From Obrimoposthia wandeli (lineage: Eukaryota): 64,000 nucleotides of DNA. Shown here in pieces: positions 4,091-64,000 of this stretch. The stretch lies in contig CDROCS010001369.1 of assembly GCA_977020255.1 (NCBI GenBank), positions 248,001 to 312,000 on the forward strand, read 5' to 3'. Positions within the stretch are counted from its first letter, which is position 1. Every line of letters begins with the position of its first letter. Both the position numbers and the translations under genes were made by a program. A model generated the notes under the pieces. The model saw only the letters and a program-made list of their open reading frames with translations. It did not search any database and had not been told where the DNA came from.

Positions 4091-4346
4091 CACAGAAAAA
4101 ACAGAAGGAACCACGCTCTACTACCCCTCTCGAAATACGGAACTGAGCCAGAATCATCTACTCGGGACCACCCATCTGTTCCTGGAAGCGAGGTCGATCA
4201 AGGGACTACAGACGCACGGAATCTAACCGTGCCTGGAAGGAACAACCAACGGGAATCGCCGGACTACTCTTGTGATCTTGAAGAGAGGCTTCTCGAAAAG
4301 ATCACGGTAAGTTCAGAAAGAGAGCGTGCATAAAAATATATAAAAA

Positions 4347-25900: not shown

Positions 25901-28900
25901 TTCGATCACCACATCTTCTTCTAGCTCCCACATTGCTTTTACTGTTGCTTTTTCGCGGTATTCATCATCTAGGAGTGTTGGACGCCAATTGGATTCTTTC
26001 ATGCCTTCTGCTTCTTCTCTTGGTGTCTCACTAACATTCTTCATCACTACACTTTCCCATCCTCATTCACGGTTTTACATATCTGTGCCTTTCCAATCGT
26101 TCCATTTCAATCACCTGGGTCTACTGACTGTGGTATCTATCTTGCACATTATGCCATCCACTTTGCAGGACAATCTTTTCTCGAGATCCATTCCACCAAT
26201 TGACGTGGGATCTTTAAAATGTGTTCTTCGAGAACTAGTTGAAATTATCCTGCTCAAACGTCTACAAACAGTCACTCCTAACTCACCACACCCCATTTTC
26301 ACTCAAACTCTTGAAGACCTTTCTGATAACCGCATCACTTCTGAAGCTTCACTGCTCAATATATCACGTCTTTTATCCTTTCTTTCACCTTCTCCATCTT
26401 TTCCGCATCGGACAACTACTGGAAAGAAGCCTAAGCCATGTTGCATTGTAGAGAAACATGAGAAACGAAACACTCAGTTTCCTACAAGATGCATATATAC
26501 ACGCTGCTAAAAAAACGGTTACCAACATCCTTCAGCCTTTGACTCCCACCATGTTCCTAAACATTGAAGATCTGATCTTGCATTTTACGAATGCACATCC
26601 ACCACAACCTGACTTCTCTCTCCTCCCATCTCTTCCACACCTTGCAGACTTTATTTCTGACACTCTCATCACAAAAGAAGAAATCATTACAGCTTTAGCT
26701 GCATGTGAATCTGCTTCTTCACCAGGTTCTTTTAACATTTATTTTAAATAATGGCAGACCATAGATCCACAATGCACTTTCCTACTTGCTCTCTTTAATC
26801 ACATTCTCATCAATCTCGAAATTCCTCCTCAATGGGCTTCCTTCAATACCATCCTCATCCTTAAACGCAACAAACTCTTCACCTCCACAAACATATCTTC
26901 CTGGCGTCACATTGTCACCACTGACTCCTCATACAGGCTCTTCACTCGCATCTTCAATGCCCGCCTTCTTAAATGGATTCGGGCTGGAAATCATATTAAT
27001 ATTGCTCAAAATGCACTTGGTCATCCTGATTCCTGCATTGAGAATGCCTTTAAGGCTCAGGCTCTCATCAATCACACCATCGCATCATCCACTCCCACTG
27101 AACTCCACACCTGTTTGCTAGACCTTGCTGATGCCTTTGGCCCAGTTCATCACTCTCATCTTTCACACGTTGTCTCTTATGGGTCTTTCTCCTCACACCA
27201 TTCTTCTTATTCAATCTCTCTGCACAAACTGCACCACTCAATACGATATGCTGACCCCCCATATTCCTGTTGTGAAGGTGGTCAAGCAAGGGTGCCCTCT
27301 GTCAATGATCATTTTCGTCTCGTCATTGACTTTCTTAATACGCTTCTGCTCACCAACTTTCCTGCTGTCACTCTTTATGGCCAATCACTTTCTGTGTTGG
27401 CCTATGCAGATGACATGGTTGTTTTTGCTCGCACAAACGCTCACTTGCAACTCTTCCTCAACAGCCTGGCAAAAGTTGCGACTGCTGCGCATCTCACCTT
27501 GCATCCTTCCAAATGTGGTTATCTTGTCACTTTCTCCCAACACCGTTCACATCCTCCTTCCACCACTTCTCAACCTTCTCTTCATCTTTACGACCAAGCC
27601 ATTCCTATGGTTTCCAGTGACTCTCTTTATATTTACCTTGGTACTTCATTCGGTCAGTGTAAAAAAGATGATCTTTCTTCACTACTCTCACAAGCACTTG
27701 AAGACTGCATCCACCCTTCAGTCTAACCTTCACCCAGCGCAAAAGATTCATGTCTTAAAAACCTTCATCTTCACCAGGTTTCCCTTCTACTTTCGCACAC
27801 ACACCATTAATAGGTATTTTCTTTCTCGTCCACACCCTCCAGGCTTCGACCAACGCCTTCGCTCGCTCCTTCGTGCTAGCTTCGAAGTCCACTTTAAGAC
27901 CCTCTGTTCCGTTCTTCTACACCTCCGCGGAACTCGGTGGTATTGGTATTATGCCACTTAATGCTGAATACATGTGTCAGTCCATCGTCTATGTGTTTCG
28001 CCTCTTCAACTCTCACAATAAGTCCACCAATGCAATAGCAGTAGCTGACCTTAAGAATGTCGTTTCCTCGTACTTTAACCTTCACAATGCACCTTCCATC
28101 ACGACTATTCTTGTTTGGTTAGCCTCCAAAGCAGACGTCAAGCATGACAAATAGGGGCGCTTCTCATCTGTCTGGGCTAGGTGTCGTAAGTCATATGCAA
28201 AACTGAGAGTATTGTTTGGTAACTGTACAACATTCACCATGAATAACACCTATTTTGATATTCACTTTCAATTTCAACAGAACACTTATACCTTTTCGAC
28301 GAATACCAAAAACGTTACCACATCAACACTCCATTACCTCATTCGCCTTTCATACCATCATGTCTGGAAGAACCAACCAGCCCAGGGTATCATCACACAT
28401 CCTCTTCGGTGTTCTGCTCCAACCAACAAAATTATCTTTCATACTGACTTGTCACCAAACGTCTTCTTCTTCCTGCTTCGAGCTAGAACTAACACCCTTC
28501 CATTCAACTACACTGGCAGTCAACCTTTAAGGGGTCTCTCCACTTCTTGCAGACGTTGTGGATTCAGTCACGAGTCTATGAAGCATGTCCTTAATGCCTG
28601 TTCGTTCAATAGTGCATCCATCACTCACAGACACAACGTCGTGCTCCAATTCCTTGCACGCAAACTGCAAGACATTGGTATTTTGGTTGATCCTGATAAG
28701 TCCAAACCATATCTTTAAAGGTCGTGCTGACATTCCATCAATTGTGCGCAACCAGCGATCCGATCTTGTCTTTAGGCATGCTAAGGGAAGTTTTGCCATA
28801 ATTTATGTGAAGAATCCGTTCGACGACCCAGCAAATTATCCGTCCATTGTTGCAAACAACCAAGACAAATACACAGCATATCCCCAACATCTTACCCACC

Positions 28901-39620: not shown

Positions 39621-40494
39621 GTAATTGTCCGAATTAAATTTAAAGAGATAGTTAATTGATAATCGTCTACCATCTGTTAACATAGCACCCTGAAACCTTC
39701 GGTCAATTTGAATAATGGACTAATCAGAAAATATCAGATTTTACCAATTTTCTAGATTCCAATTACTATAATTATTAAATCATTTCATCTTAGTTTGGGA
39801 TGCCCTTTACTAATTAAAGGAGTTTAGCTGGTCTAGATGTGAAAAGAGCATCTCTTTATTGTGCTTGTGGAAGCATTAATGTCAGAAATGAAATAATTTC
39901 TAACTGCTCATAATGTTATAAGAAGATTAATTCTAACCTTTGTCATCAATATTATTTCCAACCTTCCCCTTATCTTTCGTTTTCTGTTCGTGAGGTAAAT
40001 CCTTTAGTATTCTATTCAATAAGGACTTTTTTTCCAACATTTTACATGTAATATAATTTGGTACATTTGTGACATTTTATTTTGAGCATTATAATAAATT
40101 GTTGATTTGGAATGACTTGAATAAGATATCATAATTATACATATGAATAAAATACCCCCTCCCAAAGTGTGTTCTCACACCAACCGGAAGTGAATATGTG
40201 CGCACACCATCAAGTGCATGTGTGCGCACACAATCACGTGAATACGTCATACACGAAATAGTTGCATAACTTCCTAAGGGTGTCTTGCAACACAATAAGG
40301 GTTTGGCTGAGAAAGGTTATGAAGGTTTGAGGGTATGGTTGTGACCGTCTATGGATGGTCAACACACCTAAAGGGTTATGGTCGTCCATAGATGAAAGGG
40401 TCTAGTTGAGAAAGGTTATGAAGGTTTGAGGGTATGGTTGTGACCATTTATAGTTGATTTCAAAGTTTTAAGTACATGGTTGTGGTTGTCATAA

Positions 40495-42235
40495 TATTGT
40501 ATTTAACCATGTAAAAATTTTATGGTCGTTCACAAGTTAATAGTTGGATTTGGAACAAATTTGATCATTTTATTACATAGTTGTATTAGTCTATCAAAAT
40601 TGAGGTGAATAATACTATTATGGCCTCGCATAAGTTAAGGGGTCCTTGTGAAAAATGTAAAAATACTTGTGATTTCAGTAAATAATAATATTTTTAATTT
40701 AAATGTGTGTTAAATTAATTTGTTAGTATTTGGTAAAGTTAAACAACTTTTAATTTAACAGTTTTTTTAAATAGAATATTAATATGTTATTATTTAAAAT
40801 AAAGAATAAATCAAAATGTTTAATAAAATCTCAAAATACTTTACTATTTTTTTTCTCGAAGATATTGAAATTTACGCAAAGATTTTATTGTTTATATATT
40901 TAAACAAATTGGTTTTGAAACACAAATAGTAAACAAATTTTAATTATGAAATAAAATATTAAAGTATAATTTGTTGCAATAAAACGTTTTTAAGCAATAA
41001 TTTACAATTTGATAAATATTCATCTTACGATAAGATTTTTTAACGGCTTCATTGACGTATATTCGAAAGTCTTATAACATTATTCTATAATCTGAGTGTA
41101 ACTTTAGAAAAATAAATCAAAATGTTTAATAAAAACTCAAATACTTTACTATTTTTTTTCTCGAAAATATTTAAATTTACACAAAGTTTTCATTTATTCT
41201 ATTGATGTATTTAAACAAATTTGTTTATAAACATAAATATCAAACAAATTTTAAGTTTACGGCATTAGTCGGGCTTTGTCCACATAAACATTAAAAAAAT
41301 CGCTATTTGCAAAAAATTAGGATTACAGTTTTTTTTCTAAATAAAAATTTAAATCTCAATTATTAAATAAGAAGTATATAGAAATATAATTATAATAATG
41401 AAAAATATTAAAAATAACAAAATAATTACAATATAAAAATAACAAAATAATTACAATAAAAAAATAATTTTAAACTTATACAAATAGTAGCATAATTTTA
41501 ATAATTTACCACGTTTTATAAGTGATGATTTATTCTAAGTTTCTTAATTTATAATTATTATTAATTGAAATATATATTGTAATATTTTGTTATGGATCTA
41601 ATTATGTTTAATTACAACATATTTAAAAGAAATAATCTGCAAACATGCGAAGAACTTCAAAAATATGGTATTTTTTAATACTTTAATTGATCAAATATGT
41701 CAATTTAGAGTTTATTCAAAAGGAAAAAACCTGTAGATATATTTATTACCTTATTAATAATAATGAATTTATAAACGTGTAGGTTAGTAAAATATCTGAA
41801 AGTAACGGAATTTAACGGCTGTTTTATTGATAAACATAAACAAAGTTCTGGCAATATCTAACTTCAGCCGATTTTACAACAACAATTTCAAATAATTTAC
41901 CTTTTAATCATAATTTTAATGATTTTGTCTTACATTTAGTAATTAGTGCTATTAACAAGAAAAATGATAATTATATTCTCTTCCTAATAAATGGATATTT
42001 TTGTTTATATTTTGTATAACTTGAACAAATATTAACAAATTTAAAATATTATTATTTTTTGAAATTAAAAGTATTTTTCATTTTTCACAAGGACTCCTTA
42101 ATTTATGCATGGATACAGGTATGGTTGAACTCAATTTTGATAGAAAAATACAACCATGTAATAAAATAATCAAGTTTCTTCCAAATCCAAACCTTAACCT
42201 TTGGACGACCATAAAAATTTTACATGGTTAAACAC
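40495..42235. mobile_element. Non-autonomous foldback-like element with ~190-bp imperfect inverted ends (intronic)
   Basis: 40500-40690 is the imperfect reverse complement of 42050-42235 (tttaaccatgtaaaa..ttatggtcgt..ggatttggaa..ctatcaaaattgag..ccttgtgaaaaatg). Internal direct repeat ~40800-40930 vs ~41110-41240. Confidence 0.7.
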
Positions 42236-45200
42236 ACAATTGGAATTTTGTTCAGCATTCTTATTAGGAGGTCTGTGAAAGAATGTCCTTGTCTGACGAA
42301 TTGCGCGTCCTTTGCGAGGCATATTGCACTGAGATTGTAACTAGAATATATTTCCCACAATGCTAAATAACAATGAGGATTAAAAACGGCTAGAAATTCG
42401 AGATATATATGATTGAAAAAGAGCTAAATGTCGTTGGATACCACAATCAATATTAATTCTGGAACAGGCCCACTCGAAGCTTGTCGTTGATTGCCCACAT
42501 AGGTTTTGTCTCAAAATAGACTATAGTCATCGACAAAATTAATTGCATCGTTGGAAATTAAATAAGCGCGAATAGGCGTTTCTAAGGCCCAAAGGCGTTG
42601 CTATGGAGCCACGCCCACCTACCAGGTGTCACACTCTGCCCCATATCTCAACGGGGGGTAGATTTTTTGTTGTTTTCTCATTCCTAATTTTTACTCAAAT
42701 TTTTTTTTTTTTTTTACACTCAAATCTCAAAACCATGAAAGTACCAAAAAAATCGGAATTTAAAACCTACCTTAAAGATGTATTGATGAACTGGCAGACA
42801 ATTAACATTGTAAAACTAAGTAACTTTCATTTAATAAAACTTTTAAAGACTTCGCACGTTTTCTAATTAAAATGCTGCAGATATGTTGGTGCTTGTATTG
42901 ATGATTTCCATACTCGATTTCCACAACTCTATCTTGATAAATCATCAAACCGTCAGCAAGTAATCTTAAATGAAGTTGATTGAATAATATTTCTTTATAT
43001 ATTTTTTGTAAATGGAGGGTAGAATTGAATTTAAAATTGTAATAGTAATTTAGAAATGCTTTATCTTTGGCATGCTGAGCAGAGCATTTGGCGCCTTCAT
43101 CACCAGTTTCATTTACCAAAAGGCCCACAAGGCATTCATATTAAATCGCGCGACTTCAATGAAGAAAACCACGCGTTGTACCCGTTTAAAATTTGAGAAT
43201 AAGTTAAAAAAGTTGCACTTCGTGTACTTCTAATAATTCGCTTTACCAGATACAGCTACACTCCAAATCTCAGCAAGTACCAAGAGAAACGTCGGAGTGA
43301 ACCGGCTACGATGGATTGAAAAACCAAATATCTAATATTTCTTAACATAACTCTAGGAAAACCATCTTTTACGCTATACAGCATATATAGGAAATTCAAG
43401 AAATATTGGGATTTACAAAAACTAATTTAAAGTTTTTCCCGTTTAAGAATTTTTGCTATAAAATATTACATTTCTATTTTGAAGCATATCTGAGTAGCTG
43501 ATATGACTAAGTTTAGGTGTTATCTTACATATTCTCTTAGACTGGAACCTGATGTTGCAGGAACTCTTCATAATGCTTTTTAAATGGAAAAGTTTTTTTT
43601 AAACATTTTTAAACTATTTTAATAAGAAAATATCTGAAAATAACTTTTAAATTTTATTTTATAAAGTTAAAATTTTTAATCCAATTTCTGTTCGAATGAC
43701 ATAACGACTCGACTATCTTCATTGAAGAATCTCTCAACATTTTGCCCAGTATACGTTCGTACACATTGCAATTATGAAAGAGCGTTTTCAGCGTTGACAT
43801 GATCTTCAATATTGGACTCATTATCGTCATGTTCTTCATTTGTTTGATTTAACAATATAGTGAATGTTAAGTCTGTATAATAATTCAAATTATATTCAAC
43901 AGCAAATCTGCTGTCATCTTTCTGTGTGCTCTTCTAAGTAAAGCGCACGGTGCACAAATGCAGGTAGTTGTGCAATCATATGAAGACAATTAGTTACGCA
44001 ATTATACAGGTACAAACATTCGATTAATTAGTTTATTGTGAGATTATAATTATAATTATTTACCTAAAAGTGAATACGTACATTTACTGTAAATCGCATC
44101 ATAATACGTACGGTCTGCTTCACTGAAACAAGACAAGATAATGTTATCAGTCATATCTGCTATTGGAATTAAGTCAAAGGTCAAACATCGGTGAATGACT
44201 TCTAAAGTTTGACTTGAATAACTGTTGGAACGCTGAAGGAACCGAGTAGTTTCATAAAAATACTTCGTCGACAAATTTCGTTTGCTTGTTATTTAAATTG
44301 ATTTTTTGATACGCTTTTTTATATCTTGTATTATCTTTTTTAATAGTACGTAAGTTTTTTGTAAGAAACTTGCCCGATTATAAGGGTGACTGTTAAACGA
44401 ATATATTTATTAATTAAATGTCACTTTAAAGATTATGGCATGGAATTACGAGTGTGACGGATTTTCAAGAGTCAGATTAACGATGTTAAACTTTATTTAT
44501 ATTCTTATCCATCCAGTCTATCCATTTTCAACTTTTGCTCCATCTCTTTTCATGTATTTTACAAAAATAGTGTTTATCCTATGGCAGCAGTCAATTTATT
44601 CAGTTGCTCCGAGTAAAATAGAGTTTATTTAAGTATTATATTGAAATTTTCATTAGTAGGAGCCCAATGTCTCCACTTTGAACATATCTGGACGATTTAT
44701 TGGTGAATTCAATTGTTTCGTTTGTAAAAAATTTTTATTCTTTCATATTCTCATACCATTGACCAAAAATAGGCAAAAACTAGTAGAAAATTATTATTTT
44801 ATTTTATTTGAGTTATTACTTTAAATGCTAATTGATACTAATTGCTATTCTTTGTAATTGCGGGGTTTTCTTCTGTATTTGTAAGCCGCTCATCTATTCA
44901 ACGAATCTTTATTGCATCGTGCGATAATTGATAATTTAGTTTGGGCTCTTTATAGAATGCAATACTTGTTGATTATGTGCGCCTTTTCTGACAAAGTAAT
45001 TTGCACTATTAGTCTTTCTTGAACGCTCTTGCATGTTTGTTTCAATCGATTTTGAGGTAAATATGACTGTATTTTATGTTGAAAATTTCTTTCTCATAAT
45101 AATTTGGGGTACTTGATTACAAATACTGATTACATTTATAGTTTTCCTATGTCGTAATTTTTGCGTTAAATGAAAACATTTTATAGTTAGATGTACTAGG

Positions 45201-47642: not shown

Positions 47643-50525
47643 GCTCTGTGTTTATTTGTTGTGAATTTACCTTTCCATTAAATCACTACCTTATCTTGAA
47701 GGTCTTTCAAACCAGCTGGAGTATCCATTGTGTGCTTGTCACAAAACACCGAACATGGCCTTGCTATCTTAAACTCATTGAAAGCGGCTATATGATCCCA
47801 TTATCTAAATGTTACGAAATTTTGAAACTAAGCTTGAATCGTGTTTACAAGTATATTTGTAAAAGTAAGGAAAATATAATTTTTACTACACTCGCTAAAT
47901 CACTGTATAAAACACAAATGGCTTTAAAATATATAAACATGCTATAGTTAAAGTCTAATAACTCAAAAGCATTTCCTGTTTTCCATTTTCTTTTTTTAAA
48001 TTTTCAGAATACTAGTGTCTTCAGCTACTTAATTTTTTTAAACAGTGTTATATTAGCCGGCAGATTGTTATAAAGATTCGGATCATAAATTTCACATATT
48101 CCATCACTATGTTATCTGAGAATTTAATGATTAATATGCAGTCATCATCGTTGCTCCTAATATGCATATGCATGTTCACTGCACAATGTTGAAGAAGACT
48201 AAAAAAGTATTTTGACTTTTGTGACAGAATAAATGTTTGGTAATAAGTAGGATATTGAATTCAATTCTGACATTGATCGAAAGCCAATGAAGTTTTATTA
48301 AATTTTCACTTGTACTAACACTTTTTTTGAATTGAATACAATTCTAACGAATTGAATTTTTTACAAGAGATTTAATTTAACAGGCCGAAAATTTGATAGA
48401 TGATGCAGTAATTCCTTCTGTGTTTTATCCTACTTCGCGGGCAAATTTCCCGACGCAAAGCAGAATATAAAAGCCGGCCATCGCTGTCTTAAAAAAATGC
48501 CGTTCGATTGTTGTCACCTTGATTAATTAATTTAAACTTTAAATTGGAATATTTAAATTCTTAAAACATACATATATATCATTTATTTGAGGTTACAATT
48601 GAAAGATAGAAACGAAGAGAAAGATATATGTAAAACAAAACTCATGAGAAGGCGTAATTTAGTAATATAAGCATTTTGGGCAGACAAAGAGGTTTAAATA
48701 AAGCTTGAGAGTTATTAGGACTATTATGCAAAGGCAGATGAAGATCAAAACTATTGCAAATAAATATGGAGTTGGAAAATGAAAACTGGAAGAAGAATTA
48801 AACCAATATTTTCATATATTGAAATGAGTTAATCTTAATCGGGTTACATCAATATTACTATCCTTGTTAATAGATGGAATTGATACACACATACTTTTTG
48901 AAGAGTATTGTTTATCGTCTTAAGATAATTTCCTTTTGGATGTTGCAGTAAGTTGATATTTTAAAGTACAAGGTAATTTACTAATTAATTATGAAAATTT
49001 ATCAATGTAATATTATGGTTCGTCAGTAATAAATAAGCAGATAGTAGTAGTTTATAACTTTTAAAATCTGAAATTCATTTCTTAAATTAATAAGATATTT
49101 TTAATCAAATTATCTTTTATCTGTTATCTTTTATACAAGTTTATCAGTATTAAATATATTTTATATCAATATTATAACAGTATATTGGAAGTAGTACGTA
49201 TATTAGTAAACATAATATCAGCAACTTTTATGTCTTTAAAAATAGTATTTAAGTATATGAAATTTTCACACTAGAAAAAAATACTCATAAAAGCTATGCT
49301 TATATGAAATTATTTTAACTCCATTTCTATTTTCATTAATATATACATTACACACATGTTTGACACTGAATATCCAATGATTATGTATCTATGTAATTTA
49401 GTAGTCATCCTATACTATAACTCGACTTATCTTACATTTTAATTGAAATTATTACTGATCTTAATCATTCAATAATTGCATGAGTTTTTCAGTTTCAATG
49501 ATCCATAAATAAACGCTCATCCAATTAAAAATCTTTATCAAAACCCTTAAAGCATTTGTTCACTTGATAAAATTCTGATTTAGCGCATGCATTCAACACG
49601 TTATAGTATTTATCATCCAAACTTACACTACATCTTTAATATGATTCAATGTTCATACTTCTATCTTGAAATTGAGATAAATGGTCTCTGGTTATTATTG
49701 AGAAAAGTATTATCTTCGCATCTATGTACTTGATGAAGAAATTTCCTATACTTGCATTTTCGTCAATAATTTTTAAAAGCTGATAATATTGTATGTTTAT
49801 TAATTTATTTACTATTGCTAATAACTGAATCAATTTAAATGAGAACATGAATTTTGAAATTTTGTATTTGTAAAATATTTAAATGGTTCTCTTTTAGTAG
49901 TCATGATATTCCTAGTTGTAAGTAATTATGTAGTAGGATTAATATTTTCCATATAAATATTTCTGATTTGGTTCATTAGCATATAAATGGCTTCTTGAAC
50001 CAATATAGATACTTTCTCTTGTTAAGATTAGGTTTTGAGTAAAATTAAAAATAAATAATTGTTTTATAGTAAAATGAAAATTCTTGAAAGCAAGGTTGAG
50101 AATTAAATAAATTTTAATTTTAAAATCAAGTTAAATTATTAGGACTAAATTAGGAATAAATATTAAGAGGACCACGAAGGTCGTGTATAATGTGTTGTAT
50201 ATAAGGTTAAAAGTAACTTGTAAAAGTGCAAAAAAATAAATAGCACTGTCAGCAAAAAAGAAGCTAATTAAGAAAAGAGAAAAAGAAAATTAATCAAGGA
50301 AACAACAAAGAAGATTGACAGTCAGCAAAGTAGGCATATTATTTTTTAGCCACTATTTACTGACGTTCAAGGGCCAGGTGCAACTTGCCTCAATTGACTA
50401 TATAAGTCTGCACAAGAACCCCATTTTTGAGATCAACCCGGAACGCCAATACAGGACAGCGCTTCCCAGTCACGGTGAGAAATTATAAAACTAGACGATT
50501 AAGTTATTGATTTTTCCAGAGAAAG

Positions 50526-51126
50526 TCAGCTCACAAGAACGATATTCTTATTTAATCGCCGTCAGCACCAAGAACGATATTCTTATTTAATCGCCGTCAG
50601 CACCAAGAACGATATTCTTATTTAATCGCCGTCAGCACCAAGAACGATATTCTTATTTAATCGCCGTCAGCACCATGAACGATATTCTTATTTAATCGCC
50701 GTCAGCACCAAGAACGATATTCTTAATTGATCGCCGTCAGCACCAAGAACGATATTCTTATTTAATCGCCGTCAGCACCAAGAACGATATTCTTATTTAA
50801 TCGCCGTCAGCACCAAGAACGATATTCTTATTTAATCGCCGTCAGCACCAAGAACGATATTCTTATTTAATCGCAGTCAGCACCAAGAACGATATTCTTA
50901 TTTAATCGCCGTCAGCACCAAGAACGATATTCTTAATTGATCGCCGTCAGCCCCAAGAACGATATTCTTATTTGATCGCCGTCAGCACCAAGAACGATAT
51001 TCTTATTTGATCGCCGACAGCACCAAGAACGATATTCTCATTTGATCGCCGTCAGCACCCAAGAACGATAGTCCTATTCTGATCGCCGTCAGCACACAAA
51101 AACAATATTCCTGTTCTGATCGCCGT
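50526..51126. repeat. 35-bp tandem array (~17 copies) in LTR
   Basis: Unit gtcagcaccaagaacgatattcttatttaatcgcc, no spacers. Confidence 0.95.
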
Positions 51127-51190
51127 GGACTCACGAACAACATCCAGAGAAATTAAAGGTATAATTACCGTAAATCGTAAAATTACCCAT

Positions 51191-52280
51191 ATTGTTAAAA
51201 TATAGTTGTTTACATTGACCCTATTTTGAAAGAATATTTAACTTTAAATTGATTATTGTTAAAATATAGTTGTTCACATTGACCCTATTTTGAAAGGATA
51301 TTTAACTTTAAATTGATTGTTGTTAAAATATAGTTGTTTACATTGACCCTATTTTGAAAGGATATTTAACTTTAAATTGATTGTTGTTAAAATATAGTTG
51401 TTCACATTGACCCTATTTTGAAAAGATATTTAACTTTAAATTGATTATTGTTAAAATATAGTTGTTCACATTGACCCTATTTTTGAAAAGATATTTAACT
51501 TTAAATTGATTATTGTTAAAATATAGTTGTTCACATTGACCCTATTTTGAAAAGATATTTAACTTTAAATTGATTATTGTTAAAATATAGTTGTTCACAT
51601 TGACCCTATTTTGAAAAAAATATTTAACTTTAAATTGATTATTGTTAAAATATAGTTGTTCACATTGACCCTATTTTGAAAAGATATTTAACTTTAAATT
51701 GATTATTGTTAAAATATAGTTGTTCACATTGACCCTATTTTGAAAAGATATTTAACTTTAAATTGATTATTGTTAAAATATAGTTGTTCACATTGACCCT
51801 ATTTTGAAAAGATATTTAACTTTAAATTGATTATTGTTAAAATATAGTTGTTCACATTGACCCTATTTTGAAAAGATATTTAACTTTAAATTGATTATTG
51901 TTAAAATATAGTTGTTCACATTGACCCTATTTTGAAAAGATATTTAACTTTAAATTGATTATTGTTAAAATATAGTTGTTCACATTGACCCTATTTTGAA
52001 AAGATATTTAACTTTAAATTGATTATTGTTAAAATATAGTTGTTCACATTGACCCTATTTTGAAAGGATATTTAACTTTAAATTGATTATTGTTAAAATA
52101 TAGTTGTTCACATTGACCCTATTTTGAAAAGATATTCTAATTTCAATTGATTACTGTTAAAATATAGTTGTTTACATTGACCCTACTTTGAAAAGATATT
52201 CAAATTTCAATTGATTATTGTTAAAATATAGTTGTTTACGTTGACCCTATTTTGAAAAGATATTCAAATTTCAATTGATT
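51191..52280. repeat. 64-bp tandem array (~17 copies) in LTR
   Basis: Unit attgttaaaatatagttgttcacattgaccctattttgaaaagatatttaactttaaattgatt. Confidence 0.95.
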
Positions 52281-52692
52281 TGAAAAATCTATAATTTGAG
52301 CTTATTCGCGAGTTAGAGAAACGACTCTAAAATCTCGATTACCCTTAACTTAAAATCGATACGTGGTTCATCCCCACTTGTGTAGAGACTTACAGAAGTC
52401 TTAGGAATTTTTACTATAACTTTTTAGAAGATACGTGCGTAAACGTATTGTTGTGTTTTAGTCTAGTGTGTTACCAATAAACGATTTCCTACATTAGAGA
52501 ACGTTGTTTAAACCCTTCAGATTAAGAGACGTCAAAACAAACACCTTCAGATAAGTAATTGAGACAGGCAACCATAGCACTAAGTAGGCCACGACCAACT
52601 TTAAGACCTGCTTCTATTAGAACTCACGTTGGGGCCCTCCGCACACAAGAGGATCTATACAAGTCTCGTATAGAAACCGCAACATATTAAAG

Positions 52693-52711
52693 TGGTGCCC
52701 CGAGTGAGGAT
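52693..52711 (+). promoter_or_regulatory. Primer-binding site, elongator tRNA-Met-type
   Basis: TGGTGCCCCGAGTGAGGAT is complementary to the animal elongator tRNA-Met 3' end (..ATCCTCAC(A/T)CGGGGCA-CCA). Confidence 0.8.
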
Positions 52712-53240: not shown

Positions 53241-53391
53241 GAATAGGTTAAGTCGAGAGACGTGTCCTCGAACTAATTAAAGAGATAAGAAATCGTAAAA
53301 TAAGAAATGTGAAATAAGATAAAATAATAAGTAAATTGATATCGTAAACGAATACATAATTGATAAGACAACGGATAATAGAAAAGGACCC

Positions 53392-55242
53392 GTGTATAAT
53401 ACTATAAGACAAAGTCAGATTCCCCAGGAAGAGATAAATAATAATAAAGTTAACCGAATTGAACAGATTCCCCAAACAGATAACAAAGTAATAGAACAGA
53501 CTAGAGTCGAAGAAAACGTATCAGACAGAGACGTAAATCAATCAGCAGTTTCAACTGACAGTTTTGAGCTGACTGAGTTGTTTGGTGAAATAAACCCAGA
53601 AGAAATTGATAATATTGAAGTTCAAAACCCAGAAGAATTTGAAATTGCCAATCAAGTAGTGATTGAGGAAGTTCAAGCGAATAATATTGAAGAAATAGTT
53701 GAGGAGGATATAATTGAAAATATGGCTCACCCAGGAGCTCAAGCAGATAATAATGCAGGAAATAATGTAGGAGAAATGAATGCAGAACAGTTGGCACAAG
53801 CCTTAAATGCGACGTTGAGACCCAACTTTTCAGGATCATTGCAAGTTACAAAGTTTAAAGGAGATGAGGAAAGTATTTGTGACTTCCTCGCAGAATATTC
53901 GAGTTGTGCAGATGTTCAAGGATGGAACGATAAAGAAAAATGTGTCCGTGTACAGGCACACTTAACCGGATTAGCACTTGAAGTGTATAAACATTTGACA
54001 GAAGCAGAACGTTTAGATTGGGAAACGTTGGAAAATGCTTTTATTGGAAAATTGGTATTGGGAGACTTAGAGAGAATCATGAGAGAACGGAAACAGAAAC
54101 ATGACGAAGGCGTGAATGAATACGCGTATGTTTTGAGAACCTTGGCCGCAAGAGCGTACCCAAGAAGAATAATGAGAAATCTAGAAGGTAACCCTGTAGC
54201 TCCAGAAGCACAAGCAGCGGAAAATAACCGGAACCAAAATGAAATGGCAGAAGTTTTGTTAGACATATTTAGAGGAGGATTGAAAAAAGATATTAAAGTG
54301 TTATTAGCAGTATCAGACACAAATGATTTTGATAACGCCGTACGAAAGGCGAGAGAAATTGAGAAAAATATAAAAAATAACGCAGCATTGGCAATTTATT
54401 CAATGACCGCAGGTGATGACGATAAGACAAAGGTATTTGTGAATAAAACAGAACCGAGTAATTTTCAGAATCGAAATTATGGACAAAATAAGTTTGAAAA
54501 AGTAGATGAATCCAGTAACGGAAACAGAGATAATTTCCGAAGTAGGAATCGAGATGATTCGAGAGGTAGAAATAATAGTGAGTCTTGGAACAGGAATCGA
54601 GATGATTCAAGAGGTAGAAATAGTAATGATTCGTGGAATAGAAATAGAGATGATTCCAGGAATAGATTTAATAGAGATAATTCAGGAAATCGCCAACCTT
54701 GGAGAGGAGACGATAGGAATTACAACGCAAACAGAGGAGAGCGAAGTGACTCTCGATTTGGAAATAATAAAGGAAGTAGTGACGGAAGATTCAATAATCG
54801 AGGAAGCGGTTTTGAATCGAATTTCCGAAGAAATGATTTTAGAGGACGATATGATAACAGACAGAATAGTCGTCGAGTACAGTTCGAAGATGAACAAAAT
54901 AAGATAGATATTCGAGGGAGAATAATGTGTTACACGTGTAAACAAATAGGTCACTATTCAAGAGATTGTACGAGAAGTAAAGAGTTCGGAACTAACAGAT
55001 TTGGAAATAATAATTTCGGTAATAATAATTTTAGAAATAATTATAGAGGATATAATTCACCCCCGCCATGGAATAGAGGTGGTGGATATACTCCACAGCA
55101 ATGGAGACCGAATAATCAGTATACAGATAGACAACAGTCACCAGGTAGATACAATAACTATGCAGACAGACAGCAAGGAGCTGAGAGATACAATAATTAC
55201 GTAGGACAGCAAGGAGCTGAGAGATATAAAAAATTCCGGTAG
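53392..55242 (+). CDS. gag: Gag (capsid-like domain + RG/N/D-rich repeats + CCHC knuckle)
   Basis: FKGDEESICDFL..GWNDKEK..LTGLALEVY, RKQKHDEGVNEYAYVLRTLA, FRGGLKKDI, and knuckle CYTCKQIGHYSRDC (54928-54969). First ATG at 53719. Confidence 0.92.
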   Translation: MYNTIRQSQIPQEEINNNKVNRIEQIPQTDNKVIEQTRVEENVSDRDVNQSAVSTDSFELTELFGEINPEEIDNIEVQNPEEFEIANQVVIEEVQANNIEEIVEEDIIENMAHPGAQADNNAGNNVGEMNAEQLAQALNATLRPNFSGSLQVTKFKGDEESICDFLAEYSSCADVQGWNDKEKCVRVQAHLTGLALEVYKHLTEAERLDWETLENAFIGKLVLGDLERIMRERKQKHDEGVNEYAYVLRTLAARAYPRRIMRNLEGNPVAPEAQAAENNRNQNEMAEVLLDIFRGGLKKDIKVLLAVSDTNDFDNAVRKAREIEKNIKNNAALAIYSMTAGDDDKTKVFVNKTEPSNFQNRNYGQNKFEKVDESSNGNRDNFRSRNRDDSRGRNNSESWNRNRDDSRGRNSNDSWNRNRDDSRNRFNRDNSGNRQPWRGDDRNYNANRGERSDSRFGNNKGSSDGRFNNRGSGFESNFRRNDFRGRYDNRQNSRRVQFEDEQNKIDIRGRIMCYTCKQIGHYSRDCTRSKEFGTNRFGNNNFGNNNFRNNYRGYNSPPPWNRGGGYTPQQWRPNNQYTDRQQSPGRYNNYADRQQGAERYNNYVGQQGAERYKKFR

Positions 55243-55843: not shown

Positions 55844-56065
55844 ATGAAAATTTCGCTTCGATTAATTTCCGGACAGATTATACATGAAAAACTTAACGTG
55901 TATCAAACAATGAAAACGATTCGAAAAAAGTTGGCAGAGAAACTTGAAATTGATGGAATGAATATGTTGTTCCATTATAAAGGGAGATCACTAGATGATG
56001 AGGACGTACCAGTCCAGTGTGGATATCCAATAGGAAATGAATTAGAGAAAAAATTGATGTCATCA
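55844..56065 (+). other. SUMO/ubiquitin-like domain in polyprotein
   Basis: MKISLRLISGQIIHEKL..LFHYKGRSLDDEDVPVQ..(shift)KIDV aligns by eye with SUMO INLKV..DGS..IRFRFDGQPINETDTPAQ..TIDV. Confidence 0.6.
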
Positions 56066-56574
56066 CTGTAGGACGCCAAGAGTTAGTAGATAATGAAGGA
56101 TTAACGGAGATATTAAACTCTGCGTTAGAAATGATAAAAACGCCTATAGAAATTTTAGACAGTTCAAGCGAAAGCGGAGATAACGATGTAGCTGAAGCTT
56201 GGAACAAGACATCCACACCAGAACCGTACGTAGCTGAATTACAAGACGTGAATTTAGAAAATGAGTTGACGACTCCAGTGGTCGAAGTACCACCAGAACC
56301 AGAGATAATTCAAATCAGACAAGATGAAGTCACGGATACAGCTAACCAAGTGAGACAAAACGAAAACGTAAACCAACTAGGAGGAGAAGACGAAATCTCC
56401 GAAATTGTAGATTTGGATTCACCAATTTGGCATGCTGCATACAAAGATAGACAAGCAGAGCCGATGATGCGACAAAATGAAGAGATTGGCCATGAAGAAG
56501 GACCAAGTCAAGAGATACAGTATAATGGTGAACCGTATGATCCAGGAGAGAATCAAACTGAGTATCAGTATTTT

Positions 56575-56601
56575 CGAAGAGGACCTGGAAGACCTAGAAA
56601 A
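56575..56601 (+). other. AT-hook motif
   Basis: RRGPGRPRK (GRP core flanked by basic residues). Confidence 0.75.
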
Positions 56602-56757
56602 GACGGAAGTATATTACGAAATGTTTTAACTGCACCACAAACTGATGAGGAGAGACATCTAAGCATTGGACAGTTAGCAGCGTCTTTAGAGCAGTATAGT
56701 GCAGAGAGGAATGAAGATATCAGAGGTGATATGAATTCGGAAACTCCAAGTAGTAAA

Positions 56758-57144
56758 GATATACTTACGGGAATTCTCAGGCAAGTGAAGCCGAAGTTGT
56801 TCAAAATGTACAAAGATGAAACAACCGATATAACAGACAATTTGACTAAAGCAGTTAGATCACAAATGTCTGCAGTAAAGAGAATGACTGCGAATCATGT
56901 ATACCATGCATCAATAGATAGATTTTACGACGGTGAAGTTTTAGCGAGATTGTGTGGAAACCATACTACAAATAAAAAGTTAATTACAGCGATCACATAC
57001 CTATGTTTCCAATTGACGGAACGAACGAGCCAACCTCACGAAGTCAAACAAGGAATAAATGAAGCGATGTATTTGATCGAGAATGTGTTACAAAGACGAA
57101 TTGACGAAAACGGAGGTTGGGCAAAATTAAGTGACTACGCTAAA
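56758..57144 (+). other. Bcl-2-like domain
   Basis: BH3-like ILRQ..KMYK..DITDNL, degenerate BH1 TNKKLITAITY, and BH2 VLQRRIDENGGWAKL (cf. Bcl-xL HLEPWIQENGGWDTF). Confidence 0.65.
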
Positions 57145-57246
57145 ACCATTGTGGAAATGAATGAAGACGATGACGAACAATGTCATGAGAATCGTCAAAG
57201 AGAAAATAAACAATACCGTCCAAAAGAAAGAAACAATCAACCAAAT

Positions 57247-59100
57247 ATGTCCACAACAATGATGATGATGATGTTAGTAATGTTCATGGGAATGCAACAG
57301 GCATCAGGATTGATAGCATACGACTGTAGCATACCAAAGATGGGACAAAAGTATTCACTGCTTGACAGCGAAGACTGTCCAGAATCACAACCGTCAAAAT
57401 TATAAGTTAAAGGTGTTGAAAACTACTTTGTGTATCAGGATGTTGATAAAGTACAAGTAGAAGTGAAAGAATGTTCAATCCATTCAAGTTATCACGAATT
57501 CTATTGTGGCCATAGAAGTTTTATGTCGGAAATCACACCTACCACACCGTACAAAGCACATAGGGTTTTGCCGAGAGATTGCGAAGACGCATTTCGAACA
57601 GGAACAATAGAAGTAGACAAGAATTACAAACCTGATGTAAAAATTGGAGTGAGACGATACGAAACAGTCACGAGAGTAGGACAACGATGGGCTGATGGAT
57701 CTTGTGACGGAGGAACAAAAAACGTACGTGGAACCAAAGTAACAGAGTTAGAAATGGACGTAACTTACAAAATTGAATTAAAAACATGGACTGCCAATTT
57801 TGATAAAAAGACACAACGAATGATGAAGTATCCAGAATGTAAAATGACAGATGAATCTTGTTTTACAGGCGAATCCACAATTGTGTATAACGTGAATCCG
57901 AAACAATGCTCTTTAGTATTTTTGAAAGAGATTAGCTTTAATAAAATAAAAGGATTCTTGTATAATAAAGATGGAGAAGGGTTCCTGTATAATAAAAAAG
58001 GAAAAGGATTGCTCAATGAAACAAGACCAATTCCTATGACAAAGACACCTACACTGTTAATGGCAACATCAACAGAAGAAGGATTGATATTTATTAAAAA
58101 GAGAAACAAAGCGCGATGCGGAATGACTGTTAGTACTACAAACTATCCTGGAATAGTTTTGTCCAAAGAAGCAATAGCATTGGCAGAAACCAAGCTAAAA
58201 CCTAGAGATATGCAGCTACACACGTATTTTATTAATAAAATTGATTTCTTATATCATAAAGGATTGATGCAAATGGAACAGTTATATCGGATGATGATCG
58301 AGAGAGATTGCCAGCTAAACAAAGAGATCGTAAGAACAAAGTTAGCATTAGCTATTACGAATCCAGACATGGTAGCACCATTATTACCCTTGGATGAAGG
58401 AGTATTTGCTAAAACCATGGGAGAAGTATTGTATACTTACAAATGTAATAAAGTAGAAGTACAGTTGAGAAAAACAGACTGATGTACGAGTGAATTGGCA
58501 GTAACGTATAATTTAAAAGAACTCTTTGTTGAACCAATCACGAGAATGATACTTCCAAAAGACACTCCAACTAAAGAAATCAGCTGCTCTAATATAATGG
58601 CACCTGAATATCAGATGACGAATGATCTATGGATAACGTTACCTGACCGAAAGCCAACGAAAACCCCAGCGATGATAAAAATGACGAATCTTAAAGGTAA
58701 AATGAAATTCGAAGCGGTAGAAAATATGGAGAACGCAGGATTGTACAATGAAAAAGACTTAAAAGCGGCATGGAACGAAATAATGTTTCCAGTAAAATGA
58801 GCCAGAGTACTTACGGAGATGGTACATCGAGCATTACCGCCAGGAGCTAGATATGCGAATTTCGATATGTTGTTATCGCCAAGTCATTTCAAGGAAGCAG
58901 CACATCAGACACTTAGAAAGATGTGGGGGAAATTCCTTGCTTTAGGACAATTATTTTCGGGTATCATAGGTATTTATGTTATAATTAAATTTGTGCAGGT
59001 AATTATAGCCCAGGTGTTATCTACGTATAGTCTATACAGGATAACCGGAATCACCTGGCAACTTATAATTGGATGTTTTCCATTTTTAGCGAAATATCTA
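57247..59100 (+). pseudogene. env: Envelope: chuvirus-like (class III-type) fusion glycoprotein with internal signal peptide; 3 in-frame stops
   Basis: Hydrophobic MMMMMLVMFMG..ASG|LIAYDC..SLLDSEDC, ECSI..YCGHRS, DGSCDG, INKIDFL..LY..DCQL..LAITNPD, GEVLYTYKC..VEV..CTSELAVT..LFVEPITRMI, GLY..DL..IMFP, MWGKF..GQLFSGIIGIYVIIK. This is the conserved motif string of Chuviridae G. Confidence 0.85.
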
Positions 59101-59460
59101 ATGCACCATCATCACGAGAACGAGTTGCGAGCCCTCAAGAAGGAGCAACATCAAACGAGAACCATGATGCGAGAACCAAGAAACTATCGAGACGACAACG
59201 ACGACGATAATGATAGCCCAGGAGTATATGCAAAGATACCAGGAAAACCAAAGATTCCGTTACCAGACAAGGAAGAAGTGGCGTTAAACCTATATCCAAT
59301 GAAGGAACTAAAGGAAGAGAAGGAAAAGTTCAAGAGAGGCATTTTAATGATAAGATGGCCTAAAGTGAGCTACAGTGAGATTCCACAAGCAGAGGAAAAA
59401 GACAAAAACGATAATTCCAGAAGAATTCTGAAGTCTAGGATATCAAATGAGAATCCAAAT

Positions 59461-59770
59461 GCTCTACCACAAGTAGCAGTAACATTGAACGGAAGAGAAT
59501 ATCTTGCCGAAGTTGATACTGGATCTGCAGTATCAGTACTTCGTAAAGAAATCTTGTCATCTAAAGAATTAAGAGAAGTATGTCCTAGAAAACAGACATT
59601 TGTTAACGTAAATGGTACAGATGTAGTGTCAGAAGGAACACTGAAATGTTCATTGAATATCGATGGAAGAGCATTGCAGTTAAATGCTAGAATATTCACA
59701 GATTGCGGTAGTCCAGTCATGATTGGGATGGACGTAATACGGATGTTTGAAGGAATAATTATATTACCAA
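59461..59770 (+). other. Aspartic protease 1 (retropepsin-like)
   Basis: VTLNGREYLAEVDTGSAVSVL (DTG 59515-59523) and C-terminal VMIGMDVI. Confidence 0.85.
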
Positions 59771-60000
59771 ACAACAAGAGTTATAAGAATGACAGTTCAG
59801 TGAGAGAGATAAAAATGTTGAGAGGACCTATAGTCGAAAAGGAAAAATACACTACGTTCCGTATGGGAAATTCGTATCAAGACAAAAAACAGGAAGCGCT
59901 AGTAAAGTCGATACTTCACTACAAAAATGTAAACCTCGGACCACAAGATATGACGAGGAGGAAAATAACATATGTGAATCTGTCAGAAAAGGATCCCATG

Positions 60001-60993
60001 AGATTCGAGAAAAATAGACGAAAAATATTAGAATTGTACTATTCAAAAGAAATTGCACGTAAAATGGCAAGATCAGGCTTAGAAATGCTAAACGCGACAA
60101 GTAGTTATGGTCATGAGGAAGTCGTACGATGCGTATGGTGTAGAGTAAAGTTTAGAGAGTGGGAAAAGAATGAAAACCCAATGAGACGTCATAAAAGAGA
60201 TGCACCAAATTGTCCATTTCTTTTGAAACTGAAAACTTCAAACGTACCAGAAATCCAAAAGGGAAAAGCGCCCGATTTCGATTACAGTGACGAGTTTCTA
60301 AAAGGAGAATCAGCTCTAATAGTAGGTAGAGTAATAACAAATAGCCGAATTGAAGATATATTCGAAGTTATGCGAGAAGTAAACGAATGTGACGAACAAT
60401 ATCGAGAATTAACTTTCGAAGATCCAAGACTTAAAAAATTGGCAAAAAAGGGACTTTTTGCTATAAAAAAGGATGGTAAAGACGTGATTAAATGCCACAA
60501 GTGTAAAAAAGAACGAATTATCGATAGATATACTCTTGAGCTACCTAAGAAAACCTTACATCATGAATTTTGCGAGTTTTGTATGTTAAAAAACAAAATA
60601 AAGCAAAAAGAACAGAAAACCGAATGTATAATCGAATACCAAATCACACGGAAAGAGATTTTGGCTCAACAAGACACACCGGTAATGTCATTCGTGAGAA
60701 GGTTATATCCAAAAGAAGCAGAAAGAATCAGAGATTTGGTAGAATTAAAAATAAAAACTACGCGAAACGGATACGGATCAATTTTTGAATTACTAAAAGA
60801 TAAAGATGACAGTACAATTGAAACAAAAGAGAAAGAGTACATAAATGAACTAGAATACGTACTAGAAGATCCGGAATGCGCAGTTTGCATGGTCAACAAA
60901 ATATAAGTTGCCTTTTTACCATGCGGACATGTAAGAACATGTCGGAGATGTGCGAAGGAAATGGTATCATGTCCGATTTGTCGAAGAATAATA
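60001..60993 (+). other. Inhibitor-of-apoptosis module: BIR + degenerate BIR + C3HC4 RING
   Basis: BIR1 MARSG..VRCVWC-x16-H-x6-CPFL with exact spacing (C60130, C60139, H60190, C60211). BIR2 EQYRELTF..LAKKGLF..DVIKCHKC. RING CAVCMVNKI*VAFLPCGHVRTCRRCAKEMVSCPICR (60877-60993; one stop). Confidence 0.92.
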
Positions 60994-61107
60994 GATCGAC
61001 AAGTGAGAAATATTAGATTTCACTATCCAAACAAAGGAAGTGGACCGACAGAGTGTAATAATTCAATAAATACAATATACCACATGGGAAACATAAATGG
61101 AGCACAG

Positions 61108-63599
61108 CGACCAGCAGCTATCATTAGAGTGAATAATTTAAGAGTAAAAGCCTTAATTGATACAGGTGCTGTAGCTTCGATAGTAAGTGAAGATTGTTTG
61201 ACAGAGGAACAGAAACGAACAATGGCAGAACCAGATGAATTCTTGGTATCGGTCAACGGAGACCCTGTAAAAGTGACGGGAATATTACCATGTACATTTA
61301 TAATTGGACGTAATACGATCACTATACCATTTAGAATCATGAAAGAATGTCCTGAACCTACAATTTTAGGAATGGATGTACTATCACAACTTAAAGGGAT
61401 AAGTATTGATTTACAAGATCCAAGATTGAAGGATAGCACATCAAACAGACAAATAAACCAAATTGATGTAATTATAGAAAATCCTATAAAAATCGGTAAA
61501 AGATCGCAATTTCTCATTCAAGGTCACACTTTATCAGAAGATAAAGGACCAGTTGTGTTCGAACCATCACGAGATTTCATAGAGAAATACGAATTACCAG
61601 TTGTGAGTACAGTATGCCTGATTGAAAACCACAAAATACCAGTTAGACTGATGAATACAACCAACAATGACATCCTATTATACAGAGGAATGAGGTTGGG
61701 AAAGATAGCACAGATGGAGAATCCCACTGTGTGTGCTATGAAACTCGATAAAGATACGAATGATTACGAAGAAATAGTAATCCAATCAGAAAGACTGACA
61801 ACTAGAGAAAAGAAACAATTACTTGATCTAATACATAAATTTCCGAAAGTAATTGCAAAAAATCCATATGACATAGGAGAAACACCTGTCATAAAACATA
61901 CAATACCACTGACAGAAGACAAAGTAGTCAGAAGAAGACCATATCGAGTACCATTACAGTTACAAGATGAAGTAAAAAGTCAGATTGAAGATATGTCTCA
62001 AACAGGAGTAATTAGACCGAGTTTTTCACCATTCTCAGCACCTGTGGTGTTGGTAAAAAAGAAGGATGGGAAAATGAGATTCTGTATAGATTTCAGAGAA
62101 CTGAACAAGATCACAAGAAAAGATGTGTATCCATTACCTAGAATCGAAGAGATGCTCGATAAATTTGGTAATTCAGATTATTTTACGACATTAGATTTGC
62201 AGAGTGGATACTGGCAAATCGAGATAGAGGAAGAGGATAAACACAAAACAGCCTTTTCCTGCGGAGATGGATTGTACGGATGCGAAAAGATGCCATTCGG
62301 ACTGACAGGAGCTCCAGCAACATTTCAGCGTTGCATGAATTTTGTACTCGCATCGTGTGCAAACACGATGGTTTATATCGATGACATAATAATATTTTCT
62401 AAAACGTTCGAAGAACATTTAAAATATCTTGAAGTTGTATTTAAAAGACTGGAAAACGCTAAATTAAAAGTTAAACCTACAAAATGCGAATGGGCTAAAG
62501 AGCGAGTAACATTTTTAGGACATATAGTATCGAAAGAAGGCATTCGACCTGATCCAGCAAAGATCGAGAAAGTAAAAGCACATTTAGCGCCAAAGACTGT
62601 TAAGGAAATACAGAGTTTTTTAGGTCTTGCGAACTATTATAGACGATTTGTTGAACATTTTTCAGATATAGCAACACCATTGAGAAAGTTGACGAGGAAA
62701 GATGAGAAGTTCATATGGGAGAAGAAGCACAACAAGCGTTCGAACATTTAAAAGAAATACTAATAAAAGCACCAATATTAGCGTTTCCAGATATAAACCG
62801 ACAATTCATACTAATGACAGATGCAAGTAACTATGCTGTAGGAGCAGTATTGGGACAAGAGGATGACGAAGGAAGAGAACACGTCATCGCGTATGCGAGT
62901 AGAGGATTAAACAGAGCCGAAAGAGGATACTCTGTTATTGAAAAGGAATGTCTAGCCATAGTGTATTCATGTAGACAGTACAGACACTACTTGCTAGGAC
63001 AAAAAGTATTCCTGTATACAGATCACAAACCACTACAGTTCTTATATAAACATAGAGATGAGATGAGTAGATTAAACAGATGGTTTCTAAAATTGGCCGA
63101 ATTCGATCTAGAAATCCATTATAGAACCGGAAAGTCGAATGGTAACGCAGATTGTTTGTCGAGATTGACAAATGTAGACGAGAAAGGAAACATAATTCCA
63201 GAAGAAGATGAAACCAACGACCAAAAAGGAGAAGCAAATCTACTAACGATTTTGCTGAAGACGGGTAAAATAGACAAAGAGATCATCAAAGAACAGAAAG
63301 AAGATGAAGAATTGAGTCTAATCAAAGAACTGTTGGTGAAAGGAGATCTAAACGATGAAATGACGAAAAAATACTCGATAAAAGAAGGAATCTTGTATAT
63401 TGTCAACAATGTCGGAAAGATAGTAGTAGTAATTCCGAAGTCATTGAAGACAGCAGTAATGATCCAGTACCACGATGGAACCTTAGGAGGACATCTGTCA
63501 GGGCGAAAGACAATAGCCAGAATCAAAGAGAAGTACCATTGGGATGGTATGGAAGACGACATAAAACAATGGTACTATGGAACTAAATGGTATTACTAA
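61108..63599 (+). pseudogene. pol: Pol: protease 2, RT, RNase H, N-terminal integrase; one frameshift, integrase core missing
   Basis: ALIDTGA (61159), RFCIDFRELN, LDLQSGYWQI, MPFGLTGAPATFQ, YIDD (62374). Shift at ~62718, then TDASNYAVGAVL, YASR, EKECLAIV, TDHKPL, NADCLSR, YHDGTLGGH..YHWDGM, after which homology breaks at ~63570. Confidence 0.95.
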
Positions 63600-64000
63600 T
63601 AGAATTAAATAGAATTATTACTAATAGTACTAAATAGAACTAAATACTAATGGTACTAAAAGAACTATGACAGTACTGAAGCAGGACTAGCCAGTCAGGA
63701 AGAAAAGGAACCGGCCTGTGGTCACATACTGCACGGTACACCAAAAAGACTCAAACAAGAATACCACGATGTAATAATGGTATTACGTAATTCACATGGG
63801 AAAAGAGACCTAATGAGAGTTCATTTAATCGACGCAGACACTGAAAAGATAATTTGTCAGATGGACACCAAATACTTCGACGGAAAGACAATTGTATGTT
63901 GTATACCGGAATCTCACCGGTTAGACACAGATCAAACGGAAGTATCTGTAAGGTTGAGCGTAATAAAAGGATTTCATTCGCCAAACCAACCGGAAGTTAC

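Follow-up and report, generated by a model that had tools for sequence, protein, structure and literature searches.

Planarians carry giant Gypsy elements known as Burro and GYPSM1 (Grohme 2018; Jurka 2007; both as cited in PMC6431247). As described in the available sections of PMC6431247 (Arkhipova and Yushenova 2019), Burro encodes a polyprotein of 4,873-5,140 aa with Gag, Ubi/SUMO-like, BCL2-like, and BIR domains; its env lies in frame between BCL2 and PR, and the env region matches mononegavirus glycoproteins. Chary and Hayashi (PMC13524379, available in part) report gB-type GAG-ENV-POL Gypsy elements in Platyhelminthes, Nematoda, and Bryozoa, with an env ectodomain bracketed by signal and transmembrane segments. 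Two BEL/Pao elements offer further comparisons: Anakin carries a chuvirus G after the integrase (PMC7642597), and Atlas virus encodes a single Gag-Pol-Env polyprotein (PMC9094657). A first-pass annotation of the locus studied here started from the premise that, in the env-bearing Gypsy elements known so far, env forms a 3' ORF of its own, and took an env in mid-polyprotein to be new. The in-frame env of Burro and the GAG-ENV-POL order in three phyla contradict that premise, and the mid-polyprotein arrangement, in print since 2019 (PMC6431247), is already published and not a discovery.

We analysed a 64-kb stretch of Obrimoposthia wandeli DNA (the window) that contains a glycoprotein domain, called G below. 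We consider it probable that G represents the env of a giant, Burro-like Ty3/gypsy element with many copies, of which this is a decayed one, and that the polyprotein of the element would be processed through an internal signal, signal peptidase, a stop-transfer anchor, and the element's own proteases. This concrete processing route is one of the modest additions of the present work, beside the class III assignment of G and the evidence for a very abundant, young family, and the remaining interest of the locus lies in it and in the phosphatase and membrane cassettes that follow the integrase.

The LTR element around G is 22.3 kb long, beginning at 50020 and extending past the window end; all element features inside the window lie on the plus strand. 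The 5' LTR (50020-52684; TG...CA) has internal 35-nt and 64-nt tandem arrays and matches the 3' LTR, which lies beyond the window (L013:7448-9313, about window-equivalent 70.4-72.3 kb). Ten mismatches over 896 aligned unique bases separate the LTRs (1.1%), and a 4-bp target-site duplication flanks both sides of the element. A primer-binding-site-like sequence beginning with TGG lies 8 nt past the LTR (52693-52710); no tRNA gene was found in the 64-kb window. Then follow a Gag frame with a CCHC zinc knuckle (53335-55242; zf-CCHC E 8.7e-6), a ubiquitin/SUMO-like domain (55856-56023; Pfam ubiquitin E 0.0016-0.015, below cut-off), a weakly matched Bcl-2-like region with a BH2-like GGW motif (56932-57120; Pfam Bcl-2 E 0.08), and the signal, G, and anchor. 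Downstream of these are a first aspartic protease (DTG; 59473-59736; Asp_protease_2), a BIR domain (60055-60222; BIR E 1.7e-10), a second, degenerate BIR-like stretch (60415-60513; BIR E 0.0063, below cut-off), a RING finger that completes an IAP-like layout and contains one stop (60868-60999; zf-C3HC4_3 E 4.9e-11), and a second aspartic protease (DTG; 61105-61398; RVP and gag-asp_proteas). Last within the window come reverse transcriptase (62053-62529; RVT_1 E 3.3e-37; 58% identical over 267 aa to that of the relative P0008), RNase H (62790-63104; RT_RNaseH E 1.7e-39), an integrase zinc-binding domain (63432-63572; Integrase_H2C2 E 5.4e-13), and the start of a post-integrase region (63660-64000) that continues beyond the window. 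By eye, the sequence from 63660 onward resembles an NF-kB IPT domain, an idea that was dropped, as Pfam gave no support. The LTR pair, the target-site duplication, and the PR-RT-RH-IN order are features of Ty3/gypsy elements, and we assign the element to the Ty3/gypsy LTR retrotransposons from its domain order and the absence of BEL/Pao domains.

No Pfam capsid domain was matched in the window Gag, and the Gag of relatives gives weak Ty3_capsid or Retrotrans_gag matches. For the Bcl-2-like region, the relative P0003 has a sub-threshold Pfam match (E 0.0015), and a four-sequence profile returned only Bcl-xL/Bcl-2 among its best 60 matches, weakly and over BH2 only (best E 0.0023). A single-sequence PDB search with this region was negative, its matches in Atlas were all under 0.9, and its single-sequence fold (pLDDT 41) was unusable. 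The ubiquitin-like domain was considered as a host-protease cut site and rejected: a diglycine end was seen by eye only in P0003 and is not conserved. An AT-hook-like GRP motif stands upstream of the Bcl-2-like region (56578-56604) and, by eye, in P0003, P0009, and P0010, with no Pfam match. The two aspartic proteases bracket the IAP-like BIR-BIR-RING block (59473-61398), and the relative P0010 has four protease stretches.

The window copy is dead and decayed: three in-frame stops interrupt G (57403, 58480, and 58798), the integrase core is absent from the ORFs of the copy, and the frame is broken near 55.2, 56.05, and 62.7 kb. A single frame with four internal stops runs from 56041 to 62751 and joins the Bcl-2-like region, G, PR, BIR, RING, PR, and RT, the third break coming after RT. 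The copy is about 1.3 kb shorter, in the integrase-core region, than most of the sister copies compared; the core is present in the relatives P0008, P0011, P0019, and P0020. The first two breaks separate gag from G and leave them out of frame with each other, so the in-frame Gag-Env-Pol arrangement claimed in the first-pass annotation rests on other sequences.

These other sequences bear it out. In the 1.35-Gb genome, a first look gave 25,717 G candidates. All 71 scored G copies, which as the top-scoring ones are a biased sample, are at 97-100% identity, and with at least this number of copies so alike and LTRs 1.1% apart, the family is very abundant and young. G is stop-free in 56 of the 71, and one copy lies in an open frame of 4,996 aa. 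The window gag frame is 635 aa long, and all 69 other genome matches to it are longer; six of the 70 gag matches have a stop-free frame of at least 1,950 aa, enough to span G, and on one contig gag and G matches share the same 2,285-aa frame. From the other end, six of 81 matches to the post-integrase cassettes have stop-free frames of at least 2,100 aa, reaching back past the integrase. Eleven of 12 loci were read, and the upstream GGW motif is in frame with G in ten of these 11, as is the PR motif in ten of 11. Gag features, G, and protease stand in one unbroken protein in P0003, P0010, P0015, and P0020, as do G through integrase in P0008, P0011, P0019, and P0020. Judging from these sequences, Gag, G, and Pol share one frame of about 5,000-5,500 codons in the family. 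Env in mid-polyprotein thus holds for sister copies and relatives with unbroken Gag-G-PR frames, but not for the window copy itself. Sequencing-run contigs over the region also point to a many-copy family, and no RNA run is listed among the five sequencing runs that carry the region's sequence. One marine-metagenome run contains 28% of the region's words, from which we conclude nothing. A pattern scan for related loci gave 596 matches in metagenome contigs and six in viral contigs, none of them confirmed.

Outside the element, the window has a GC content of about 30% and holds several other repeats. Pieces related to the element's LTR, 72-94% identical to it in parts, lie at 3117-5430, near 22.9 kb, and near 30.6 kb, and beyond the window at L014:5158-6588; the internal tandem arrays of the piece at 3.1-5.4 kb differ from those of the element's LTR. 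By eye, we also recognized the decayed gag-pol of another LTR element (8065-9500, plus strand), a Tc1/mariner-like transposase fragment (11901-12512, plus strand), fragments resembling a Polinton-type family B DNA polymerase (15678-17324, minus strand), and decayed non-LTR retroelement-like reverse transcriptase frames (26752-28718, plus strand). An inverted repeat pair at 40493-42241 (123 nt, 84% complementary, 1.5 kb apart) is possibly a small DNA transposon.

The G frame comprises 624 codons (57247-59118) when read with X at its three stops, and this reading is matched by PF24664 (Monjiviricetes_fusion) at E 4.9e-90, far past chance. Searching 1.84 billion representatives recovered 1,321 relatives with E values no higher than 0.001. 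In a 116-sequence alignment, all 14 cysteines of the ectodomain are each at least 90% conserved; the ectodomain and membrane-proximal region occupy 57310-58941. The structure predicted from this alignment has a mean pLDDT of 91. Compared by Foldseek with viral structures, the model has chu-like virus glycoproteins as its top matches (E 5e-43, TM up to 0.67), at about 20% sequence identity. Compared with the PDB, its best 40 matches are all herpesvirus gB (TM about 0.4, 10-13% identity), led by pseudorabies gB at E 3.6e-13. A single-sequence search with G against solved structures gave no match below E 1, and an alignment-profile search reached gB weakly (E 0.025); huntingtin matches from the same profile were judged spurious. 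Because the model matches both chu-like virus G and herpes gB, we assign the window G to the chuvirus-like class III fusogens (gB/chuvirus G type), a prediction drawn from profile and model. The first-pass annotation had called the region a chuvirus-like glycoprotein, and the motifs on which it relied (AYDC, LIAYDC, and others) do stand at the place it named; the class III matches remove an objection that it had itself raised, a lack of any such match. For this env, the class III assignment is a modest contribution of the present analysis.

We regard G as a candidate trimeric membrane-fusion protein that may confer infectivity. A possible but, in our view, unlikely alternative is that G has lost its role in entry and persists as a tether to the membrane or a scaffold for budding during intracellular assembly, with the element moving only inside the cell. 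No furin-like site was found in G, it has one N-glycosylation sequon only, and the available sections of PMC13524379 demonstrate fusion for no gB-type retroelement env. However, the class III fold has been retained in full, together with each of the 14 cysteines in the ectodomain, and G is stop-free in most of the best-scoring copies, biased as that top sample is. Fusion thus remains the function that we favor for G.

A putative signal inside the polyprotein, based on hydropathy and positional homology, occupies 57247-57309, with a Met-rich h-region, Ala at -3, and Gly at -1. The polyprotein-borne G proteins with a covered start are 14 in number, the window and 13 relatives, and are homologues rather than independent cases. 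A hydrophobic nine-residue stretch (mean at least 2.47) lies just before AYDC in all 14, and the -3/-1 small-residue rule is satisfied in 13. At a hydropathy threshold of 2.4, which was chosen post hoc, such signal-like stretches cover on average 2.6% of positions in the background. The 140 other G hits are unannotated and could come from viruses or from endogenous copies. Of these, 85 have a length of 560-800 aa, with G beginning within the first 45 residues; by eye, these stand-alone G proteins mostly start with an ordinary N-terminal signal peptide that ends at the cut position of the polyprotein-borne G. The internal signal peptide proposed in the first-pass annotation, ending just before LIAYDC, is thus well supported as a prediction, and hydropathy and homology suggest that signal peptidase would cleave at this point.

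The same segment would be an ordinary N-terminal signal if env, while in frame, were translated chiefly from a spliced message or from an internal start, with the polyprotein as a minor product. Splicing expresses the env genes of other errantiviruses, the family of the window element carries a Met run at the signal and a Met placed 21 residues upstream of the cut, and the segment is the positional equivalent of the signal of stand-alone G. Yet in five of the 14 polyproteins, Met is absent between 15 and 45 residues upstream of the cut, so a separate env start codon is not conserved, and the open frame has been kept on both sides of G among relatives that are only 27-42% identical. Moreover, because no stop follows G in the unbroken sequences, a spliced env message would still extend into PR and RT. 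We therefore regard expression of this kind as distinctly improbable and retain the polyprotein as the main source of G. It counts against the polyprotein that a single frame yields as much Env and Pol as Gag, which is unusual for retroelements.

The topology of this polyprotein was read from Kyte-Doolittle windows and positional homology. The predicted transmembrane anchor of G (58963-59019) has a 19-residue mean of 2.32, and the corresponding segment scores at least 1.6 in nine of nine polyprotein rows (median 2.09). The moderately hydrophobic segment that follows (59050-59103; 1.26 on the same scale) reaches 1.6 in none of the nine (median 1.31), and in 101 other rows, where it is part of the tail of stand-alone G, its median is 1.22. 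We take it for a likely cytosolic amphipathic helix, a second membrane pass being conceivable given that four of the nine rows score 1.46-1.58. With the single anchor, PR and RT would come back into the cytosol, within reach of the two DTG proteases. The first-pass annotation had named a topology with PR and RT left in the lumen as an objection to its proposal; the one strong anchor found in all nine rows predicts, on hydropathy, their return.

Taken together, these features suggest the following route. The part from Gag to the Bcl-2-like region would be synthesized in the cytosol, and the internal hydrophobic segment would then act as a signal sequence and thread G into the ER lumen. Host signal peptidase would cleave ahead of LIAYDC, the anchor would halt the transfer, and the proteases and Pol would emerge in the cytosol, where the element's aspartic proteases would release Gag and Pol from the parts anchored in the membrane. 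G itself would act as the envelope of the particle, as a class III fusogen with type I topology. The mechanism put forward in the first-pass annotation is probably right. In the literature searched, as far as it was available, no description was found of signal-peptidase processing of a Gypsy polyprotein; Grohme 2018, Sacco 2022, Jurka 2007, and the figures of PMC13524379 may cover it.

The origin of G was addressed with a FastTree phylogeny built from 55 G proteins, of which 13 are borne on polyproteins (the window G among them), 40 are drawn from the 85 stand-alone ones, one is BEL/Pao-fused, and one is of another kind. All 13 polyprotein-borne G proteins fall in one clade (support 1.0) on a long branch (0.85). 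The window G is 27-42% identical to the 12 others of this clade and 19-24% identical to the 40 stand-alone proteins; P0027, which is BEL/Pao-fused (DUF5641), falls among the stand-alone G and is 22% identical to the window G. A reading of G as a recent capture from a chuvirus is not borne out by this grouping, and G reads as an old retroelement lineage rather than a fresh capture; the tree, midpoint-rooted and with tips that exclude named chuviruses, gives neither donor nor direction. The best named structural matches of G are chu-like virus proteins, which would speak for a gag-pol element that gained a chuvirus G gene recently and by chance, but this reading is largely refuted by the identities, the single clade, and the at least 71 closely similar genome copies that carry G, and we give it almost no credence. 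G of the old retroelement lineage is also found in compact Gag-Env-PR polyproteins without evident accessory domains (P0012 and P0015), and since these belong to the same clade, env in mid-polyprotein is independent of Burro-type cargo.

Beyond the window end, the post-integrase frame continues with a dual-specificity phosphatase bearing the HCxxGxxR motif (L013:660-2240; DSPc E 4e-32) and a degenerate second one (L013:2241-2800; E 7e-5). These are followed by three signal-anchor pairs that match no Pfam family and are potential small type I membrane proteins (L013:2847-5509), and, ahead of the 3' LTR, by a tandem series of three small ORFs that encode RING fingers (L013:5555-7182). By hydropathy, each pair consists of a signal-like segment ending in small-x-Ala and a stronger anchor; the three pairs are in the pol frame in sister copies, and P0008, P0011, and P0019 also have signal-like and anchor-like segments after the integrase. 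Three such pairs make an even number of segments, which fits repeated threading into the ER. A tentative and rather doubtful extension of the polyprotein model is that the chain is threaded four times in a flavivirus-like manner, with host signal peptidase releasing a gB-like fusogen and three type I proteins, and that the family, with its single-frame strategy, is a complex retrovirus-like agent that infects an invertebrate. The three type I proteins may then be receptor-binding partners (gH/gL-like) or immune modulators, and the Bcl-2-like region, BIR-BIR-RING, and dual-specificity phosphatase would form a cytosolic anti-death and anti-signalling cargo. Should the cassettes be real membrane proteins, they would be relevant to how a fusogen of the gB type manages without the gH/gL of herpesviruses, a question left open in the available sections of PMC13524379. 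Neither a phosphatase in a Gypsy element of such a kind nor three post-integrase signal-anchor cassettes were found in the available parts of the literature searched; Grohme 2018, Sacco 2022, and Jurka 2007 may describe such cargo.

Compared with the known systems, the element is closest to Burro as described in the available sections of PMC6431247. Like Burro, it has long LTRs with tandem repeats, decayed copies, and a single polyprotein of about 5,000 aa, seen here as the open frame of one of the 71 scored copies. It also shares the order of a CCHC Gag, a ubiquitin/SUMO-like domain before a putative BCL2-like one, env, BIR, and PR-RT-RH-IN. Unlike Burro, which has two or three CCHC knuckles and is over 30 kb long, the window element has one knuckle and is 22.3 kb long, or about 23.6 kb with its missing part (about 22-24 kb). 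The MATH and ankyrin domains of Burro, which vary between species, have no Pfam match in the window copy; ankyrin is present in the relative P0003. For the dUTPase-like region between PR and RT of Burro, which is HHpred-based in PMC6431247, no dUTPase Pfam match was found at 61438-61737. The window element differs further in having two proteases around BIR-BIR-RING and, after the integrase, a dual-specificity phosphatase as well as signal-anchor cassettes and RING ORFs, three of each; those sections mention none of these post-integrase parts for Burro. The env of Burro is likened there to gypsy/F-type env, whereas the predicted fold of the window G is class III. From its size and the missing MATH and ankyrin features, the element would be a Burro-like new member rather than part of a named Burro family.

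With the errantiviruses of PMC13524379, the element shares a Ty3/gypsy pol, a gB-type env between gag and pol, and flanking signal and transmembrane segments; six Schmidtea env sequences in its supplement have, by eye, the motif pattern of the window G, none being identical. The available main text of that paper does not use the words polyprotein, BIR, or apoptosis, and leaves processing and cargo untreated. The chuvirus/Monjiviricetes G and herpes gB resemble the window G in PF24664, the class III fold, the AYDC mature N-terminus, and the cysteine pattern, but they are stand-alone genes with an N-terminal signal, whereas the window G lies in mid-polyprotein. Anakin, as described in the available parts of PMC7642597, has the same glycoprotein family on an LTR element; unlike in Anakin, the window G precedes PR, no BEL/Pao Pfam domain is present, and the tree separates it from P0027. 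Finally, Atlas virus, in the available parts of PMC9094657, also has its Env within one polyprotein from which proteolysis must release it, but that Env is of class II, phlebovirus-like, and located at the C-terminus.
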